Shown in pieces: positions 22,575-32,054 of a DNA stretch of 64,000 nt. The notes under the pieces were generated by a model. That model was not told where the DNA came from. It did not search any database and saw only the letters and a program-made list of their open reading frames with translations. Position 1 is the stretch's first letter; every line of letters starts with the position of its first letter. The DNA lies in the NCBI GenBank assembly GCA_964436015.1, contig CAYTAR010000005.1, positions 17,714 to 81,713 of the forward strand. Reading direction: 5' to 3'. Source of the DNA: an uncultured Candidatus Saccharibacteria bacterium. Its GTDB lineage: Bacteria > Patescibacteriota > Minisyncoccia > Phycocordibacterales > GCA-2401445. Both the position numbers and the translations under genes were made by a program.

Positions 22575-22647
22575 TCCGCGGTAGCTCAGTTGGTAGAGCG
22601 TCTCGCTGTTAACGAGAGGGTCCTAGGTTCGAGCCCTAGCCGCGGAG
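22575..22647 (+). tRNA. tRNA-Asn (anticodon GTT)
   Basis: Hand-folded cloverleaf: acceptor TCCGCGG/CCGCGGA, D arm GCTC/GAGC, anticodon loop CTGTTAA, T arm CTAGG-TTCGAGC-CCTAG, discriminator G. Confidence 0.85.
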
Positions 22648-22907
22648 CCGTATAAAAAAATCACCTCTTATATTCTTGAGGTGATTTTTTTATACTTACT
22701 TACACGCGGCAGGGCTCGAACAGGAAAGGGGTCGGGAAAACAGTCGTTTTCCCGTGGAGTGAGAATGCATAGGTATGCATTCGCAAGACCGGAGGCAGAC
22801 GTGCCGAGGTGGGGTCGCAGGCTTTTTCAGCAGAAAAAGACCCGTGACAGGCAGTGAGTCTTCGAACGTTGGAAAACCGTAGGTTTCCAAGGAGTTCGAG
22901 CCCTAGC
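22645..22907 (+). repeat. 263-bp direct repeat copy 1 (att-like; starts at tRNA-Asn 3' end)
   Basis: About 99% identical to 29544..29806 (3 mismatches); begins GAGCC (tRNA 3' end) and ends GGAGTTCGAGCCCTAGC (tRNA T-arm-like core). Confidence 0.9.
22653..22694. terminator. bidirectional terminator just after tRNA-Asn (inside the repeat)
   Basis: AAAAAAATCACCTC-ttatattctt-GAGGTGATTTTTTT perfect 14-bp stem. Confidence 0.7.
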
Positions 22908-22965
22908 TTATATACGAGTACTTTGGATTTTAGAGTGTACTCACGAATAAAATCCTTAGTAACTC

Positions 22966-23034
22966 GTGACCGAGTCCTAGCCGCACACTACACCACAAAA
23001 TTCCAAAAATAATTGTACGTATCCCTGTTTTCTC
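22966..23034 (+). repeat. tRNA-Asn 3'-end-like fragment (F1) plus conserved AT-rich motif (M1)
   Basis: GTGACCGAGTCCTAGCCGCAC matches the tRNA 3' end at 15/16; followed by CAAAAATAATTGTACGTATCCCTGTTTTCTC; the unit recurs at 30020, 30727 and 31991. Confidence 0.7.
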
Positions 23035-23086
23035 TCAAACTCAGCATCTTGTGCTGCCACTGTATGTATATGTAAATCTATCTTTA

Positions 23087-24250
23087 TCATCGATTACCTT
23101 TTGCCCTGTTATGTGTCTTACACAACATCTGGCAATTTTTTGCGTCCGTTGCACCACCCTTACTCCACGCTGCCACATGGTCGGCATCCATGTCGCTTAG
23201 ACCCCAGATTTTCTCTTTGTTGGCATCATGCCCAATTGCACAAAGCGGACAGTTTGATTCGCCCTTTTTCTTTGCTGTGGCAGTTTGAGCTTCATACACT
23301 GAACGTTTGGTTGCATCATCAAACACACGTACATCAAGTAGTTTTGTATCAACTTCACCACCTAAGACGTACTCAAAGATTCCTTTGCGGTTCTTTACGT
23401 ATGCATCACCATAGAGCCGTTGCACTGCTGTGGCTACTTTCTTAGGATCATATTTTTTCTTGTGATAGGTTTCGTAAAGTCTATTCCATTCCAATCCTCT
23501 CATTTCACTCTCAACATCTGTGAATGTTTTGGATACCCAGTCAATGACTTTATCAAAGTGATTCTTTAGCTCCGTAATGTTCTTATCGTTACGATGCTTA
23601 CTCATGTAATTGTCTATGGCACCATCAGAAACCCAGTCTAAAGCTCGCTCCAAATATGCTTGGCGTTTGATGTCACCAGCAATATAGGCACTCCACTTCT
23701 GCACATTGGCGTTTTGACTGTTACTAAACTCTTCACGTGCCTTAGTAACAAAAGGACCCGAATAGACGGCGTTTAAAATCTCCTGCTCAGTTAGCGGCAC
23801 TCCAGCAATATTAATAGTCTTGAACCAATCCTTGATCTCTGGCTCGTCGCCCTCGCACACATACACCAACAATTTGGTGTTTAGTATCTGTTCACGCTGA
23901 CTGTCAGCCATACCGCTGTAGTACTGCTCATGGCCGTTCTTGTCTTTAACAGCAAACTTACCGGTAACAAATCGTCCAATACTGGTAATGCGCTGTTGGC
24001 CATCGAGGACCTCAAATTTGTCTTTTCCAACTTGGTTAAAATAAATCAAACCAATGGGGTATCCCTTCAAAATTGAGTCAATCACAGCAACATCCTTTTT
24101 GCCGTCAGCATAAATATAGTTACGTTGATATTCTGGTTGAATCGTTAGCTTGCCAGACAAACCAAACAAACCCTTTCCTTCCAACTCGTTATACACGAAG
24201 CCGTCGCAAACTTCTTCGATGGTGATGTCATTTTTTAGCGTTGTTTTCAT
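23087..24250 (-). CDS. DUF262 (ParB/GmrS-like) N-terminal domain + C-terminal HNH nuclease (GmrSD-like type IV restriction candidate)
   Basis: DGQQR motif of DUF262; C-terminal CPLC...[10 protein letters not shown]...[13 protein letters not shown] zinc-finger motif. Confidence 0.75.
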
Positions 24251-24252
24251 AA

Positions 24253-25440
24253 CTATTTTTTCTTGTGCTTGATTAAAACTCTCTGATAAACTTTTTCCAG
24301 TAAACCATTGACTTTCACGACTCCGCTAGCGTTAAGATCATAGATGCCTGTCTTGCCAAATTTATCTAGATACGCCTGTTTACATTCTGTAGATGTGTAA
24401 ACTTTGGTTTTTTGTTTATATAAATCCTCATTTTCACACATACCAACAATCTTAAATTGGTCAGGGTTATATTTATCTAGGAAACTAATTGGCACCCCCA
24501 TAACACCACCATAGTCACTAGGAATTGCTTTAGCGAACGGCACCTCAATGGCATCGTAATTTTCATATTTCAAATAGCTCGTTTCTTTCTTTTGTATCTG
24601 CTTATTAAATTTTTTATTTTCTGCCATGGTCATAAATTCAAGTGGTTGGTGACGACGACCATGATCAAGATTAGTAAACCAGCGAACACCCATCACACGC
24701 GCGTAGTGAACGCCATTTTTATCAGTCCGCCAATTGCCAATTTCCTTGAAAATATAATGCGGAACTACAAACTCTCTATCTCCACTACTTATACTTGGTC
24801 CAAGCCAGACCTTATTCTCTTTAATCATTGGAAAAACTTCTTTGTAAGTTATGGCATTCAAGTTACCAATGATTAGAAATTGTTTTTTGTATTCAAAAAG
24901 CTGAGTAATGTACTCACGGAATAAACTAAAGGGAGGATTAGTGACGACAATATCACTTTGCTTGAGAAGCTCCACGCATTCATCACTTCGAAAATCACCG
25001 TCTTCTTCGAGCGGTGCCCACTCGTTATTTTTATTAGCTTTAAGCTGCAAAGCAATGTCTTCAAGTGTGAATGAACCGTCGCCATCAACATCACCAACCT
25101 CGTTGATGATGAACTTGTTTGCGGTAATTTTTGGCCGCCCTTTAGCTGGTTCAAGAGTGACATCGTCACCAAACAGACCGATTTGAGTATTTGCAACCGG
25201 TGAAGGTTTGTAGCTAGTGGTAATGAGCCTCTTTAATCCTAGTCTATTAAAATTTAGAACGAAATATCGAAAGAAATTGCTTTCATATGGATCATCACAA
25301 TTGCTATAAATTACTTTACCCTTGAAAGTATCAGGGTCGTATTCAAGATAAGACTCGATTTCTTTTTGAATGTCCGAATACTGGGTATAAAACTCGTCAT
25401 TCTTTGTCCGCTTTGCGTTTGTAAGATTTTTGTTTGCCAT
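24253..25440 (-). CDS. gamma-class N6-adenine DNA methyltransferase
   Basis: N-terminal DEFYT (HsdM/IIG-like motif) and catalytic VVTNPPF (motif IV). Confidence 0.8.
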
Positions 25441-25445
25441 AACAT

Positions 25446-26435
25446 TTACAGAGTTTTTCTTCGTGTGAGGATCGGCTTAGCATCCAGTGAACCGATAAAG
25501 TAAAAACTATGGTTGAGATAGCTTGCCATTTCTTCTACTTCAGATAATGCATTGTATATAGCATTTCCCAATTCATACTCTTTTGTATTGCATTTGATTA
25601 TCTTGTCGCCAAAGATATCAGTGGCCTCATTCTTATCAATCACAAACCCATGATCCTTGTATTCATATACAAGACGCTCGGCAATATCTTTGGGCGTATT
25701 GGCAAGCTTGCTCGCTCGAGGACTGAGTAATCTTTCCGCATATTGCATTGCAGATTCCGCAACACGTTCGTAGTAACCCACCTGTACTGGTTCAACAGAA
25801 AGATTGAGATACTGCGCAAACATTGAGGCAGATGCGGGATATTTTTTTACAAGACTGGCAATGTGTTCAATTGAATTCTTTAGACCGAGAGCAGGTACCC
25901 TGCGTCCAGAGACTTCAGATTTCATCTGTGGATCAATTGGACCAAGCTCACTCATACTGCCCATATGTATCTCATCAGATGCACACGCTAGAAGAGTAGC
26001 TGCTGACTTAGCATAACGAGGCACAACGGTTACGAATTTCTTATTAGAAAACTCAGAACAAAGTTTCCCAATCAAATATGCTGATCCTGGCTCTCCACCA
26101 CCAGAGAGTAAGATGAGCAGAAGTGGTTTATCGTTGTTGAACTCTGTTATCGCTTCATAGATTTTGTCAGAGTCACCCTTAACCAAAATCGTATTATCGA
26201 ACAGGATTAGAGTATTGAAGTCTTCACCACAATCATGTTTATTAACTTCTTGTCTAAGAAATTTCTTTAAGAGAGCCGAGAACTCATCCTGTTTTGTTCG
26301 AGTCCCGTTTTTACCATAACCATCTACAAGAACGGTAAACAGGTCAACAAAAGATATTTCTTTCTTTTCTGAAGACTTTGGCTGACTGGCCTTAGTTGTC
26401 GTTGCTTTTTTAGGTGTTGGTTTCTTGTTTTTCAT
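25446..26435 (-). CDS. SDH/S49-family Clp-fold serine protease (SppA-like)
   Basis: LLSGGGEPGSAY and ACASDEIHMG blocks typical of the S49/SDH peptidase fold; Lys-rich N-terminus. Confidence 0.6.
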   Translation of the reverse strand: MKNKKPTPKKATTTKASQPKSSEKKEISFVDLFTVLVDGYGKNGTRTKQDEFSALLKKFLRQEVNKHDCGEDFNTLILFDNTILVKGDSDKIYEAITEFNNDKPLLLILLSGGGEPGSAYLIGKLCSEFSNKKFVTVVPRYAKSAATLLACASDEIHMGSMSELGPIDPQMKSEVSGRRVPALGLKNSIEHIASLVKKYPASASMFAQYLNLSVEPVQVGYYERVAESAMQYAERLLSPRASKLANTPKDIAERLVYEYKDHGFVIDKNEATDIFGDKIIKCNTKEYELGNAIYNALSEVEEMASYLNHSFYFIGSLDAKPILTRRKTL

Positions 26436-26437
26436 AC

Positions 26438-27133
26438 TTATTTCTCGTTATCGAGCATAACTTTCAACTGGAAGATTGTATCTGACTTCAGCTTTGCCCG
26501 TGCAGAGTCTTTCTGTGGATCGGACAACAACTCACCAAGACCATCCAAGATGTGCTTGTTATCCATCTTTTCCAGCATATCAATACATTTCTCCAGCGTT
26601 TCTTTGAAAGACATTCCTGAGCGCTGTTCCACTATTTCGCGATTTATTGACCAATTACTCTTAGCAAAGTAATTAACGTCAAACACGTCTCGGCTCGTCT
26701 TGCCGACACGTTCATACATCGCCATGAGTTTGTGGGCAAACATATCCTCCTGGACCATGACGAGCATTGAAATACCCAACAATGTCTTCATCTCGTATCG
26801 TGAGCCAAATTGTCTGCGATTGACCTCGACCTTTATGTTCTGAGCTTTCGGATCATAAGAGACGACATGGAGCAAGTTAAATCTCTTGATGCGAGAGTCG
26901 AGCACTTTGCCATACTCTTTGACAATAGTGCTGACCTTTTCAAACACCTCATCCTCCTTTGATTCGTCCAGCAAATCAAAGTCTAGGTCTACCGAATTAC
27001 GCGGCAAGTCATAGAACATAAGTGCCGCAGTACCACCTTTAAACCCGAGGCAGGGGGCAATGGAGGTATCAGAGTAGATATCTTTCAATATCTGCAACAG
27101 GATATTTTTATGTTTTGAATAGTCTAAGGTCAT
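26438..27133 (-). CDS. abiEii: AbiEii/AbiGii-family nucleotidyltransferase toxin (type IV TA)
   Basis: FKGGTAALMF...RNSVDLDFDL NTase motif; overlaps upstream abiEi stop by 4 nt. Confidence 0.8.
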   Translation of the reverse strand: MTLDYSKHKNILLQILKDIYSDTSIAPCLGFKGGTAALMFYDLPRNSVDLDFDLLDESKEDEVFEKVSTIVKEYGKVLDSRIKRFNLLHVVSYDPKAQNIKVEVNRRQFGSRYEMKTLLGISMLVMVQEDMFAHKLMAMYERVGKTSRDVFDVNYFAKSNWSINREIVEQRSGMSFKETLEKCIDMLEKMDNKHILDGLGELLSDPQKDSARAKLKSDTIFQLKVMLDNEK

Positions 27134-27732
27134 ACGGTTTTTTCTTTGTTATAGGCTTTGAAGTATTCTTTTACTTTCTTCTCCAATCGCTTGTTGTGAT
27201 AGATAGGCGCGATTTTAAAAACCTTATCCCAATCCAAACTAGCCAAGTTATCGAAATGATAGTCTTTGCTCACGTAGATACGATCCAAAAATGCACGTTC
27301 TTTTGTCGCGATCGAGTAGCCCGCTTTGCTTTCAATGCCAGCAGTATTACTCAAGACGTAATCTTTCATGCGGATAAAAGTGATCTTCTGGTCTCCAACT
27401 ATAATTTCGCGATTTACGTATGAGGCAACAAATATATTTCCGTAGTATTGGAAGCTAACCCCCTCACGAGTTAAAACAGTTTCAAAGCTTACATAGGAAG
27501 GCGTATAGATTCTGGTTGCTAACTCAAAGCGATCGTAGTTCTTGTCTTTTGCATACAAGCCACGACGTACTCGAATCAACTTTCCGGCCTTCACATATCG
27601 CTTTAATCGATCAGTGACAACAGAACTATCATCTTCATTCCACAACAAAGCAGCGTCTTTCGTAGAAAAGACTGTCTTGGAAGATCTTAACAAGACCTCT
27701 AAAAATTCTCCTTTTGTTGGTATTTTATCCAT
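27130..27732 (-). CDS. abiEi: AbiEi-family antitoxin/transcriptional regulator
   Basis: Position immediately upstream of and overlapping abiEii; N-terminal winged-helix-like region; internal ATG chosen. Confidence 0.65.
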   Translation of the reverse strand: MDKIPTKGEFLEVLLRSSKTVFSTKDAALLWNEDDSSVVTDRLKRYVKAGKLIRVRRGLYAKDKNYDRFELATRIYTPSYVSFETVLTREGVSFQYYGNIFVASYVNREIIVGDQKITFIRMKDYVLSNTAGIESKAGYSIATKERAFLDRIYVSKDYHFDNLASLDWDKVFKIAPIYHNKRLEKKVKEYFKAYNKEKTV

Positions 27733-27838
27733 TTTCAGTCTAGAAAGGGTATTTAAGTCCCTTTCCAGTAACAATATAGCATATTTTAGATAACTCAACA
27801 AATGGGGATAAGGGGAGAAATAAGCATATCTAGTACAT

Positions 27839-27902
27839 GTCTTATAATATTATAAGACATCATCATGTTGCTGTTTGTCTACTTATAATATTATAAGTAG
27901 AC
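27839..27902. promoter_or_regulatory. two perfect palindromic operators in the divergent abiEi / 27911 promoter region
   Basis: GTCTTATAATATTATAAGAC (20 bp, 27839-27858) and GTCTACTTATAATATTATAAGTAGAC (26 bp, 27877-27902) share the core CTTATAATATTATAAG. Confidence 0.6.
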
Positions 27903-27910
27903 TTTCAGCT

Positions 27911-28879
27911 ATGAAGAAATCTCCCCTAGAACAAGTCAAAGCAAAGCTTAATAAGTACTACTTGGCTGCTTTGACTGCGGAAGAGCTGCAGCTTTATTTT
28001 GACTCGCGACTTGAGAAGGTCTTGCGTGACAAGAAGATCGTAACCCTGCGAGAGCTTGGGTATCTGCTCTGTGAGACTGGTCCGGGTGATCGTCGCTTCG
28101 ATCCACGACACATTCCACTACTTATTCAGGACGGTCTTCTCTCTACTTCCCCGTATGGAAGTATCCCTGAAATTATTGAGCTTGGAGAGAAGAAAAAGAA
28201 AATTGATGAGTATCTCAGAGATAATCAGGATACAGAAGCTGCTAGAAAGCTGATTTTAAAAGTTCTCGCTACCTATGCCAGTGATCTGACAGTGGTCTCG
28301 AAAGATCTGTTTGTTGTGGACGGCATGTTCGGTAAGATTCCAGTTTCTTTTCTTGTTAAGAATGGACAGTGGATACTCCCTGATGAAGAGCTATTTTCCT
28401 TCTTGCAAGAAGCACAGCGTAAAAAACGGCTACCTGTAGTAGTAGCCAGAAAGATATCGGGTATCTTGTTTCCGATGTTCAAAGGTATTTCAGTTTTGGG
28501 ATTGAATCTTTACAAGACGTACCTACCAAAGAATGCCAAAGGACTGGTTGACGCGGCAGTCATTCCTGCCCAGGGTTTTATGAGAAAGTTGCGATACTCC
28601 GGTCAGTTTGAATACCTCACAAAGGACTATATAGAAGGGATTGAAGACGAATATTGGACCGGTGATCCACTCAAGAACTTTTTGGAAGTAATCATGCCCA
28701 GGCATGCAGAAGACTACTATCAGCGTTTTGTTGATCAGAAGATCACTACCGCAGATAACTTCGCTGATACCGTGTCGCAGTTCCGAAAAAACAAAGCCAC
28801 CAAAGGTCTTCTGAATACTTATGAAGCGCAGGAGAATTTGATTCAAGAACTCAGTAAAACAACTAAGAAAGGCTCATGA
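27911..28879 (+). CDS. hypothetical protein (322 aa), divergent from abiEi
   Basis: ATG at 27911 (the ORF track TTG start at 27875 lies inside the operator palindrome); no domain recognised. Confidence 0.5.
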   Translation: MKKSPLEQVKAKLNKYYLAALTAEELQLYFDSRLEKVLRDKKIVTLRELGYLLCETGPGDRRFDPRHIPLLIQDGLLSTSPYGSIPEIIELGEKKKKIDEYLRDNQDTEAARKLILKVLATYASDLTVVSKDLFVVDGMFGKIPVSFLVKNGQWILPDEELFSFLQEAQRKKRLPVVVARKISGILFPMFKGISVLGLNLYKTYLPKNAKGLVDAAVIPAQGFMRKLRYSGQFEYLTKDYIEGIEDEYWTGDPLKNFLEVIMPRHAEDYYQRFVDQKITTADNFADTVSQFRKNKATKGLLNTYEAQENLIQELSKTTKKGS

Positions 28880-29388
28880 AAACGAACGGATGGCACAAAA
28901 GAGTACTGCTGAAACATGCTAAAGAAATAACGACTAATGGGATGACCTATGCAGTCATTGCGCTTGTACTCTTACTCTGGCACTTTGCTCTTGATATGAA
29001 ATTTCAGTGGCAACAGATAGCACCTTTGTCAGAACCAAGTATCTTTGTCCGTGCATTTTACAGCGCATTCACGTTTGGAACATTAGGCCTATTACTGTAT
29101 GTACTCCGCTTTTACAAAGTCTTGCACGACATCATGGTTAAAGCTTTCGGTATGTGGGAACTCTATAACCTGATCAAAGCGGTGATCTGGCTGGGCTTAA
29201 TGTATGTCTCTTATGCCTATCTCGTACCATGGCTATTTAAGTTTTTGAATACTGGAGCGTCTGTTCTTTTCAACATTGCCAACCTGGTGCTATATATCGC
29301 ACCTCCTATAGGTATTGCTTTGATCGTAAGCATTATTTATCTGATCCTCAAAAATAAATTCGCATTGAGACATCGTGCCCCGAAATAA
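28876..29388 (+). CDS. 4-TM membrane protein, translationally coupled to the upstream hypothetical
   Basis: ATGA overlap; four hydrophobic helices; no domain recognised. Confidence 0.5.
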   Translation: MKTNGWHKRVLLKHAKEITTNGMTYAVIALVLLLWHFALDMKFQWQQIAPLSEPSIFVRAFYSAFTFGTLGLLLYVLRFYKVLHDIMVKAFGMWELYNLIKAVIWLGLMYVSYAYLVPWLFKFLNTGASVLFNIANLVLYIAPPIGIALIVSIIYLILKNKFALRHRAPK

Positions 29389-29543
29389 CACACGGACTCA
29401 TTGTAGTTGCTTAGTATTCAAACACCTCGTGCCTATTGCATGTACTTCGGGAGGATCGGCGTGATACCGGCACGTTCCAATGCTTCGCTGGAACGTCGCC
29501 AGAAGTCCGCTTCAATAGCGGTTCTAATGCGTCGCATTCCGTC

Positions 29544-29806
29544 GAGCCGTATAAAAAAATCACCTCTTATATTCTTGAGGTGATTTTTTTATACTTACTT
29601 ACACGCGGCAGGGCTCGAACAGGAAAGGGGTCGGGAAAACAGTCGTTTTCCCGTGGAGTGAGAATGCATAGGTATGCATTCGCAAGACCGGAGGCAGACG
29701 TGCCGAGGTGGGGTCGCAGGCTTTTTCAGCAGAAAAAGACCTGTGATAGGCAGTGAGTCTTCGAGCGTTGGAAAACCGTAGGTTTCCAAGGAGTTCGAGC
29801 CCTAGC
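29544..29806 (+). repeat. 263-bp direct repeat copy 2
   Basis: Identical to 22645..22907 apart from 3 mismatches; includes the same terminator hairpin (29552-29593). Confidence 0.9.
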
Positions 29807-30019
29807 ATTTATGTGTATTCGAAAGACGGAGCGTACGAAGTCGCCTTCTTAGGCGTGCGCGAGTCGGGTGAGAAGCGAACACTTGGAGCTTTGCAAGACC
29901 TTTTGAGCTGTTTTGTGAGTGAAGCGAAATAAAAGAGTCAAAAGGTGTACAGAATCTGTAAGATTCGCGAACACTTAGTCCGCACAGTGTGCAAAGCACA
30001 TGAGCAGACTTAGTGATTT

Positions 30020-30088
30020 GTGACCGAGTCCTAGCCGCACGCTATACCACATAACTTCAAAAATAATTGTACTTATCCCTGTTTTCTC
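30020..30088 (+). repeat. tRNA-Asn 3'-end-like fragment (F2) + motif M2
   Basis: GTGACCGAGTCCTAGCCGCAC then CAAAAATAATTGTACTTATCCCTGTTTTCTC. Confidence 0.7.
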
Positions 30089-30726: not shown

Positions 30727-30788
30727 CGAAGCCCTAGTCGCACACTACACCACAAAATTTCAAAAATAATTGTACTTATCCTTATTCT
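30727..30788 (+). repeat. tRNA-Asn 3'-end-like fragment (F3) + degenerate motif M3
   Basis: GAAGCCCTAGTCGCAC then CACCACAAAATTTCAAAAATAATTGTACTTATCC. Confidence 0.6.
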
Positions 30789-30895
30789 TCTATGATTTGA
30801 CAAATACTACAATTAATGCTCTACTTAGACTTAGAAGCAATGACCGGATAAGTGTCCGAAAACAGGCTTATACTTGAACCTACAATAAAAGGACT

Positions 30896-31990: not shown

Positions 31991-32054
31991 GAAAAATAAT
32001 TGTACTTACCCCTGTTTTCTTCTTATCCCTGTTTTCTTATCCCTGTTTTCTCTC
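31991..32054 (+). repeat. motif M4 with a triplicated TATCCCTGTTTTCT unit
   Basis: GAAAAATAATTGTACTTACCCCTGTTTTCTTCTTATCCCTGTTTTCTTATCCCTGTTTTCTCTC. Confidence 0.7.

Follow-up and report, generated by a model that had tools for sequence, protein, structure and literature searches.

A five-gene defence cluster in a Candidatus Saccharibacteria contig as a probable assembly of independent AbiE, protease and restriction-modification modules

The window analysed here is a 64,000-nucleotide (64-kb) stretch of contig CAYTAR010000005.1, from an uncultured Candidatus Saccharibacteria bacterium, and its interval 23087-27732 carries a cluster of five minus-strand open reading frames (ORFs), designated g1 to g5, that encode the two proteins of an AbiE toxin-antitoxin (TA) pair, a lone ClpP-fold serine protease, an EcoRI-family DNA methyltransferase (MTase) and a nuclease combining DUF262 and HNH domains (Table 1). 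Comparison with other genomes suggests that the cluster is an ordinary defence island, in which AbiE, the solo protease and a type II-like restriction-modification (RM) pair were joined by recombination as independent modules, a reading to which we assign a probability of about 0.8. According to this reading, an island of ~6.5 kb (23035-29538), bounded by direct repeats of ~0.4 kb, would have been acquired horizontally beside a tRNA-Asn gene, and its three self-sufficient modules would have been joined head to tail through recombination at gene boundaries. The abiEi and abiEii genes would operate as a type IV TA or abortive-infection pair, probably autoregulated via two 16-bp palindromes, and g3 would be a promiscuous solo cargo that, in our opinion, most likely serves in defence or addiction by itself. 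The g4 MTase would mark host DNA and the HNH site of g5 would cut unmarked DNA in a methylation-sensitive manner, probably modulated by nucleoside triphosphates (NTPs) through its ParB-like DGQQR domain. The resulting layers would be additive, with restriction acting first and abortive infection as a back-up, and no mechanistic coupling between them would be expected.

Gene content and mosaic origin of the cluster

The ORF list and direct reading of the sequence bore out the five minus-strand genes, their coordinates and the spacing given for them in a first-pass annotation of the window, with one 4-nt overlap followed by gaps of 2, 5 and 2 nt. Read from the minus strand, the g1/g2 junction is an ATGA overlap, and the subsequent junctions present the sequences TAA-GT-ATG (g2/g3, 2 nt), TAA-ATGTT-ATG (g3/g4, 5 nt) and TAG-TT-ATG (g4/g5, 2 nt). 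The g1 gene starts at the ATG at 27732, and a TTG-extended version of this ORF runs to 27801. The domains that the same annotation had assigned to the five products (AbiEi, AbiEii, SDH/S49 ClpP-fold protease, N6-methyladenine [m6A] methyltransferase and DUF262 plus HNH) were all recovered in Pfam, PADLOC and NCBIfam searches, and the locus is, as had been proposed, made of defence genes.

A sister island, represented by loci L084-87 and L092, presents the gene order p7-p6-AbiEi-AbiEii-MTase-nuclease, without the protease. In a nucleotide alignment with L084, window positions 26426-29555 matched at 89% identity and positions 23079-24276 at 88%, with only ~75% in the MTase region, and no counterpart was present in L084 for positions 25448-26425, an ORF-sized insertion that corresponds to the protease ORF. 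The tract that is divergent or novel with respect to L084 (24277-26425) encompasses exactly the protease and MTase genes. At the protein level, identity to L084 was 98% for AbiEi, 97% for AbiEii and 97% for the nuclease, and only 66% for the MTase. The closest MTases to g4 (84-85% identity; L175/L176) were instead located in plain two-gene RM loci, the nucleases of which are only 86% identical to g5. The high identity of the AbiE pair and the nuclease to L084, as opposed to the low identity of the MTase and the location of its closest relatives elsewhere, indicates that the window operon arose by recombination, with its breakpoints at the borders of genes. No tRNA gene or direct repeats were detected at the L084 copy of the block, which lies in a different genomic context, and the homology with L084 stops at 23079 and 29555, that is, at the repeats flanking the window island. 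The presence of these repeats, the adjacent tRNA gene and the different context of L084 suggest that the island was acquired.

The tight spacing of the five genes was found to be a common feature of the window. Crude ORF calling yielded 50 same-strand neighbour pairs, and 20 of them (40%) overlap or lie no more than 5 nt apart, which indicates that such spacing is the default in this genome and not a special mark of the cluster. In L084 (9172-13554), the nuclease gene is followed after 8 nt by genes for SIR2_2 and HerA, which make up a SIR2-HerA defence system, and the HerA gene overlaps the housekeeping gene xseA; the outcome is a run of eight genes, hardly separated by any intergenic sequence, that comprises three defence systems and one housekeeping gene. 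The 8-nt distance and the HerA/xseA overlap indicate that close packing joins unrelated genes in such genomes. No terminator-like site was identified on the minus strand from 27732 to 23087, and, given that the intergenic space leaves no room for internal signals, a single transcript starting at the abiEi promoter probably covers g1 to g5. The co-transcription put forward in the first-pass annotation is hence plausible, in view of the missing internal terminator, the 0-5 nt gaps and the operator-like region upstream, while the tight spacing invoked for it is in itself generic.

Table 1. Coordinates of the five-gene cluster and of the features surrounding it in the window; functional labels are predictions.
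Feature	Positions	Strand	Basis or remark
g1, abiEi: type IV antitoxin / winged helix-turn-helix (wHTH) autorepressor, 200 aa	27130-27732	-	PF13338; PADLOC AbiEi
g2, abiEii: DUF1814 nucleotidyltransferase toxin, 231 aa	26438-27133	-	PF08843; PADLOC AbiEii
g3: lone SDH/S49-type ClpP-fold serine protease, 329 aa	25446-26435	-	PF01972 core match; fold model
g4: EcoRI-family N6-adenine DNA methyltransferase, 395 aa, modification subunit	24253-25440	-	PF13651; PADLOC MTase_II
g5: DUF262 + C-terminal HNH endonuclease, 387 aa, restriction subunit	23087-24250	-	PF03235, PF01844; PADLOC REase_II
Two perfect 16-bp palindromes, CTTATAATATTATAAG	27841-27856 and 27882-27897		Pattern search; abiEi/p6 divergent intergenic region
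tRNA-Asn (GTT)	22575-22649	+	tRNA search; island directly 3'
Left direct repeat	22640-23034		Begins in last bases of tRNA-Asn
Right direct repeat	29539-30088		Other flank of the ~6.5-kb island
Hairpin flanked on either side by A/T runs	22654-22691	both	Read from sequence, after tRNA-Asn
p6, ~322 aa	from 27911 (listed ORF starts at TTG 27875)	+	ORF list
p7, 170 aa, multi-pass hydrophobic	28876-29388	+	ORF list

The restriction-modification and AbiE pairs

The g4 product matched the Pfam EcoRI_methylase family (PF13651) with 420 bits and the PADLOC MTase_II model (PDLC03297) with 339 bits, and its translation carries an NPPF sequence that fits the (N/D)PP(F/Y) catalytic motif. For g5, an N-terminal match to GmrSD_N (PF03235, 82 bits) and the presence of a DGQQR motif outlined a ParB/Srx-like domain, and the C-terminal region matched HNH (PF01844, 28.5 bits) and also PF14279, with no match to DUF1524 in the Pfam scan. 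The PADLOC REase_II model (PDLC03418) matched g5 over its full length with 285 bits. Nucleases of this type have thousands of relatives and are highly conserved, with at least 558 relatives of g5 at 74% identity or more in a metagenome scan. Of 88 nuclease loci, 81 presented an EcoRI-family MTase gene upstream in the same orientation, and the other seven are cut by contig ends. Furthermore, the pair was detected without AbiE or protease in Pseudohongiella (L088-90), in L091 and in L175-178, including a 3.4-Mb contig and Patescibacteria contigs, and on plasmids of Enterococcus faecium and Pseudarthrobacter. Plasmids of Moraxella harbour the pair as well, for three phyla in all, and on these plasmids the two genes bear the PGAP names 'adenine-specific methyltransferase EcoRI family protein' and 'DUF262 domain-containing protein'. 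These results fit an autonomous and very widespread two-gene type II-like RM module, so that the pairing of MTase and DUF262-HNH nuclease, which had at first been taken for an unrecognised arrangement, is a common one.

Upstream context was assessed in the 56 RM loci with at least 700 nt of sequence before the MTase gene, hereafter the informative RM loci. None of them presented a protease upstream of the MTase, and AbiEii was found in five, all of which are copies of one island. The genealogies of MTase and nuclease were incongruent. In the comparison of window positions 23087-25440 with loci L084-L178, nuclease identity ranged from 74 to 97% (62-69% on the Firmicute, Actinobacterial and Moraxella plasmids), versus 39-85% for the partner MTases. 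This greater conservation of the nuclease is the opposite of what is customary for type II systems, in which a fast-evolving nuclease accompanies a conserved MTase.

The MTase and nuclease genes are directly adjacent in 62 loci, and in 19 of the 81 (L094, L100, L101, L103, L107, L108, L116, L117, L130, L137, L139, L148, L151, L158, L162, L163, L167, L169 and L171) they are separated by 0.4-4.2 kb harbouring one to five same-strand passenger genes. The families represented among these passengers are RhuM, Fic/DOC, Bro-N/AntA, T5orf172, DUF2130, DUF6602, NYN, GIY-YIG, Mrr_cat, ThsB_TIR and LexA/S24. Their presence indicates that the MTase and DUF262-HNH operon offers a landing site to cargo genes, like type I hsd loci. 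RM operons with embedded passenger defence or TA genes are known for type I hsd loci, and in the context of defence islands (Makarova et al. 2013, PMC3632139). In common with such operons, unrelated Abi, TA or cargo genes in the same orientation are found within or beside the RM genes, AbiE and the protease being those of the window; unlike in type I hsdRMS operons, the scaffold is here a two-gene type II-like pair. With type II RM systems the pair shares separate MTase and nuclease genes that are always adjacent, passengers aside, and that are mobile across phyla and plasmids. It departs from them in that g5 joins a ParB-like DUF262 domain to HNH, instead of presenting a PD-(D/E)XK fold, and in that about a fifth of the loci of the g4-g5 type hold passenger genes between MTase and nuclease.

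Regarding short palindromes, the 64-kb window is depleted in TCGA (observed/expected 0.50), GATC (0.60) and GGATCC (1 observed versus 6.4 expected), and no depletion was observed in it for sites with an AATT core. The depleted sites hint that other, or earlier, RM pressures have acted on this genome. As a guide to the site targeted by g4 and g5, palindrome avoidance was judged to be non-diagnostic, with TCGA and GATC depleted and AATT-core sites not.

The g1 product matched the PADLOC AbiEi model (PDLC02255) with 190 bits over profile positions 3-184 of 186, and the N-terminal winged-helix family PF13338 with 26 bits, for a cutoff of 25, in agreement with the winged helix and C-terminal antitoxin domain of AbiEi proteins. 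The g2 product matched Pfam PF08843 with 58.7 bits and the full length of the PADLOC AbiEii model (PDLC02324) with 258 bits, and its translation presents GGTA...DLDF motifs. Upstream of g1, two instances of the CTTATAATATTATAAG palindrome were identified, 41 nt apart from start to start, versus 0.01 matches expected by chance. Each instance contains TATAAT on both strands, and both of them are kept, with the same spacing, in the related island L084. AbiEi operators have been described as paired inverted repeats, and AbiEi autoregulates. The two palindromes are a likely AbiEi operator/promoter, through which abiE would be autoregulated. Like AbiE systems of the type IV TA/Abi class, g1 and g2 form a bicistron with an ATGA overlap, the antitoxin being of the wHTH type and the toxin a DUF1814 nucleotidyltransferase, with paired inverted repeats in the promoter region as putative operator; unlike in those systems, three more genes are present in the predicted transcription unit of the window pair.

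The solo ClpP-fold protease

The g3 product matched the Pfam SDH_protease family (PF01972) with 47 bits (cutoff 31.3) over the catalytic core only (residues 87-173, 86 of 286 profile positions), and scored 57 with the NCBIfam Clp_like_SDH model, under its cutoff of 250; PADLOC returned no match and has no model for it. Its N-terminus (residues 1-23) is Lys-rich and disordered. An AlphaFold (AF2) model of g3 was obtained with a pLDDT of 85, and its best fold matches in the Protein Data Bank (PDB) were the 1510-N/NfeD stomatin-specific protease, SppA and ClpP. Sequence searches against the PDB with g3 (as a profile), g4 and g5 returned no match. Residues S144, K186, H157 and D168 are invariant across 31 homologues, and this invariance, together with the fold matches, supports the notion that g3 is likely an active serine protease.

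An exact-sequence look-up of g3 itself returned no record. A total of 2067 g3 homologues were detected, with members at 40-60% identity in Patescibacteria, Bacteroidota, Planctomycetota, Acidobacteriota, Proteobacteria and other phyla. A tblastn search of the other four window proteins against 83 loci harbouring g3 homologues returned nothing except an MTase fragment in L006. Among 125 immediate neighbours of g3 homologues, no Pfam or PADLOC family was observed more than three times, and when 285 neighbours (two genes to either side in 76 loci) were compared with one another by BLAST, the largest cluster had four members. No AbiE gene or g5-type nuclease was present among these 285 neighbour ORFs. 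The homologue with 93% identity to g3 adjoins genes for T5orf172 and HsdR, the one with 83% identity an OLD-family nuclease gene, and the one with 74% identity genes for ThsB-TIR and a serine recombinase. A ColE1-type plasmid of Klebsiella quasipneumoniae (pHNLW22-3, NZ_CP089444.1; L180), 4.1 kb in size, carries a 351-aa homologue with 39% identity as its sole cargo gene. Lastly, a distant homologue named 'SppA' (28% identity) is encoded by Klebsiella phage ST13-OXA48phi12.4 (31088-32083; L179) as a prophage moron located by the immunity region, with an overlapping 71-aa ORF upstream.

With more than 2000 homologues, 50-60% identity between distant phyla, no PADLOC model, no partner, an instance as sole cargo of a ColE1 plasmid and defence genes next to its nearest relatives, the g3 type could tentatively be seen as a large family, still uncharacterised, of one-gene modules for phage defence or addiction, even if the odds remain against it. 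More speculatively, g3 may have been recruited in the window operon to act on AbiE or RM components. A literature search for SDH/Clp proteases in defence islands returned only papers on mitochondrial ClpP. The FS_HP_SDH_sah system of DefenseFinder, encoded on phage-inducible chromosomal islands, may resemble the g3 case in presenting an SDH/S49-type ClpP-fold protease as accessory cargo of mobile elements, and the layout of the Klebsiella prophage moron, with a small hypothetical protein (HP) and 'SppA', is akin to it. The g3 protein differs from this system in matching PF01972 over the catalytic core only, and in lacking a small HP partner upstream, where abiEii lies at 2 nt; across the 76 loci, no conserved partner was identified. 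The name of the DefenseFinder model is confirmed, indirectly, in PMC13532340.

Alternative readings and island setting

Several observations weigh against the reading of the cluster as a set of independent modules. The L084 group keeps the AbiE-RM junction in a second lineage, and a possible third lineage is represented by the more distant L096, in which an AbiEii fragment with 78% identity lies 5 nt upstream of the MTase, without the protease. The AbiE-RM linkage may hence be advantageous, for instance by placing RM under AbiEi control or through TA-mediated stabilisation of the island. In addition, L006 harbours an N-terminal MTase fragment (89% identity to g4) near a protease with 61% identity to g3, in divergent orientation and with another ORF between them, and the neighbour analysis of g3 homologues was based on crude ORF calling. 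The co-occurrence in other genomes on which the first-pass annotation had made its proposal depend is seen for MTase and nuclease (81/88 loci) and for AbiE and RM (the L084 group and L096), and not for the protease with any of them, bar L006, so that the proposal of one functionally linked five-gene system fails on its own terms.

The composite system that had been envisaged at the outset would make the five genes a single integrated, multi-layer apparatus, with the protease and the Abi toxin mechanistically tied to a methylation-aware nuclease. Such a system would be in agreement with the 0-5 nt packing, the lack of an internal terminator and the recurrence of the AbiE-RM adjacency. However, no second locus with all five genes was found, the protease is missing from the sister island and from 56/56 informative RM loci, both the protease and the RM pair are found by themselves in a wide range of phyla, and tight packing is generic in this genome, making functional linkage of all five genes very improbable. 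The start of g3 only 2 nt past the abiEii stop, on what is expected to be the same mRNA, would also be accounted for by a protease that acts as an AbiE accessory, degrading for example AbiEi or another factor on infection and thereby freeing the AbiEii toxin. This possibility is extremely slight, given that no AbiEi or AbiEii homologue was found beside protease homologues in 83 loci, and that an AbiE pair with 97-98% identity exists without the protease; moreover, type IV AbiE antitoxins are not known to act via proteolysis.

The coincidence of the tract differing from L084 with exactly two genes (24277-26425), and the vicinity of a close MTase and a protease homologue in L006, could be explained if protease and MTase had arrived as a block, giving rise to a three-gene unit with the nuclease in which the protease would control restriction, for instance by degrading the nuclease during establishment. 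The divergent orientation of the L006 genes, with an ORF between them, the plain two-gene make-up of the RM loci that hold the closest MTases (84-85%, L175-178) and the occurrence of an upstream protease in 0/56 RM loci make this origin highly improbable, and a shared source locus for protease and MTase was rejected because the closest MTases sit in plain RM pairs. A further reading concerns g5, which might be a modification-dependent type IV nuclease similar to GmrSD or BrxU, accompanied by g4 as an unrelated orphan methyltransferase. An N-terminal DUF262 domain with the DGQQR motif is common to GmrSD, BrxU and SspE (PMC4619093), and g5 shares with them this NTPase-like motif and a C-terminal His-Me finger nuclease. 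Unlike these proteins, g5 presents a classical HNH (PF01844) rather than DUF1524 at its C-terminus, with full-length REase_II as its best PADLOC model, and its type is always paired with a cognate MTase, the two being co-oriented across phyla in 81/81 loci not cut by contig ends. The absence of DUF1524 and the constant pairing with an MTase indicate that type IV restriction of the GmrSD type does not fit g4 and g5. Furthermore, an m6A-dependent nuclease encoded beside an m6A MTase would be expected to be self-toxic, and we regard this alternative as barely credible.

Returning to the island that the preferred reading of independent modules implies, alignment of its flanking repeats showed that positions 22640-22913 match 29539-29812 at 97% identity and positions 22955-23034 match 30009-30088 at 89%, for a repeat length of ~0.4 kb. 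The 14-mer GTTCGAGCCCTAGC from the T-arm of the tRNA presents an extra copy inside each repeat, at 22894 and 29793. These extra copies, in repeats that start in the 3' end of the tRNA gene, suggest Campbell-type insertion by homologous recombination or earlier integration events; no gene for an integrase or a recombinase was detected within the island. The hairpin located after tRNA-Asn is a possible terminator for the tRNA and, read on the opposite strand, for the transcript of the five genes. An Rfam scan of the repeat region by the tRNA returned only spurious miRNA-like hairpin matches, and no tmRNA or other RNA family.

The p6 and p7 genes overlap by 4 nt and span 27911-29388, divergently from abiE across the palindrome region. 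Both are also present beside abiE in L084, with 89% and 91% identity, respectively, and neither returned a match in Pfam, PADLOC or PHROGs. The lack of a family match and their co-travel with the island indicate that p6 and p7 could constitute an undescribed two-gene module. In addition, an element of 29-80 nt with the core AAAAATAATTGTACTTATCCCTGTTTTCT was observed in at least four copies (23005-23033, 30059-30087, 30762-30790 and 31992-32051), each lying ~100 nt upstream of a small plus-strand ORF without assigned function (30182, 30896 and 32094). Downstream of the tRNA, this element may be the repeated promoter or junction sequence of a variable, cassette-like region.

In the compact genomes of the candidate phyla radiation, tight gene spacing does not equate to functional coupling, and comparative genomics here splits an apparent operon into independently mobile modules, with breakpoints exactly at gene borders. 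The EcoRI-family MTase and DUF262-HNH pair emerges as a very widespread RM module, the nuclease of which is still annotated simply as a 'DUF262 domain-containing protein', and the solo ClpP-fold protease family as one for which a new defence function, exerted by a single gene, can reasonably be proposed. The function of this protease family and the hosting of passenger genes by the RM pair are the points of remaining interest.

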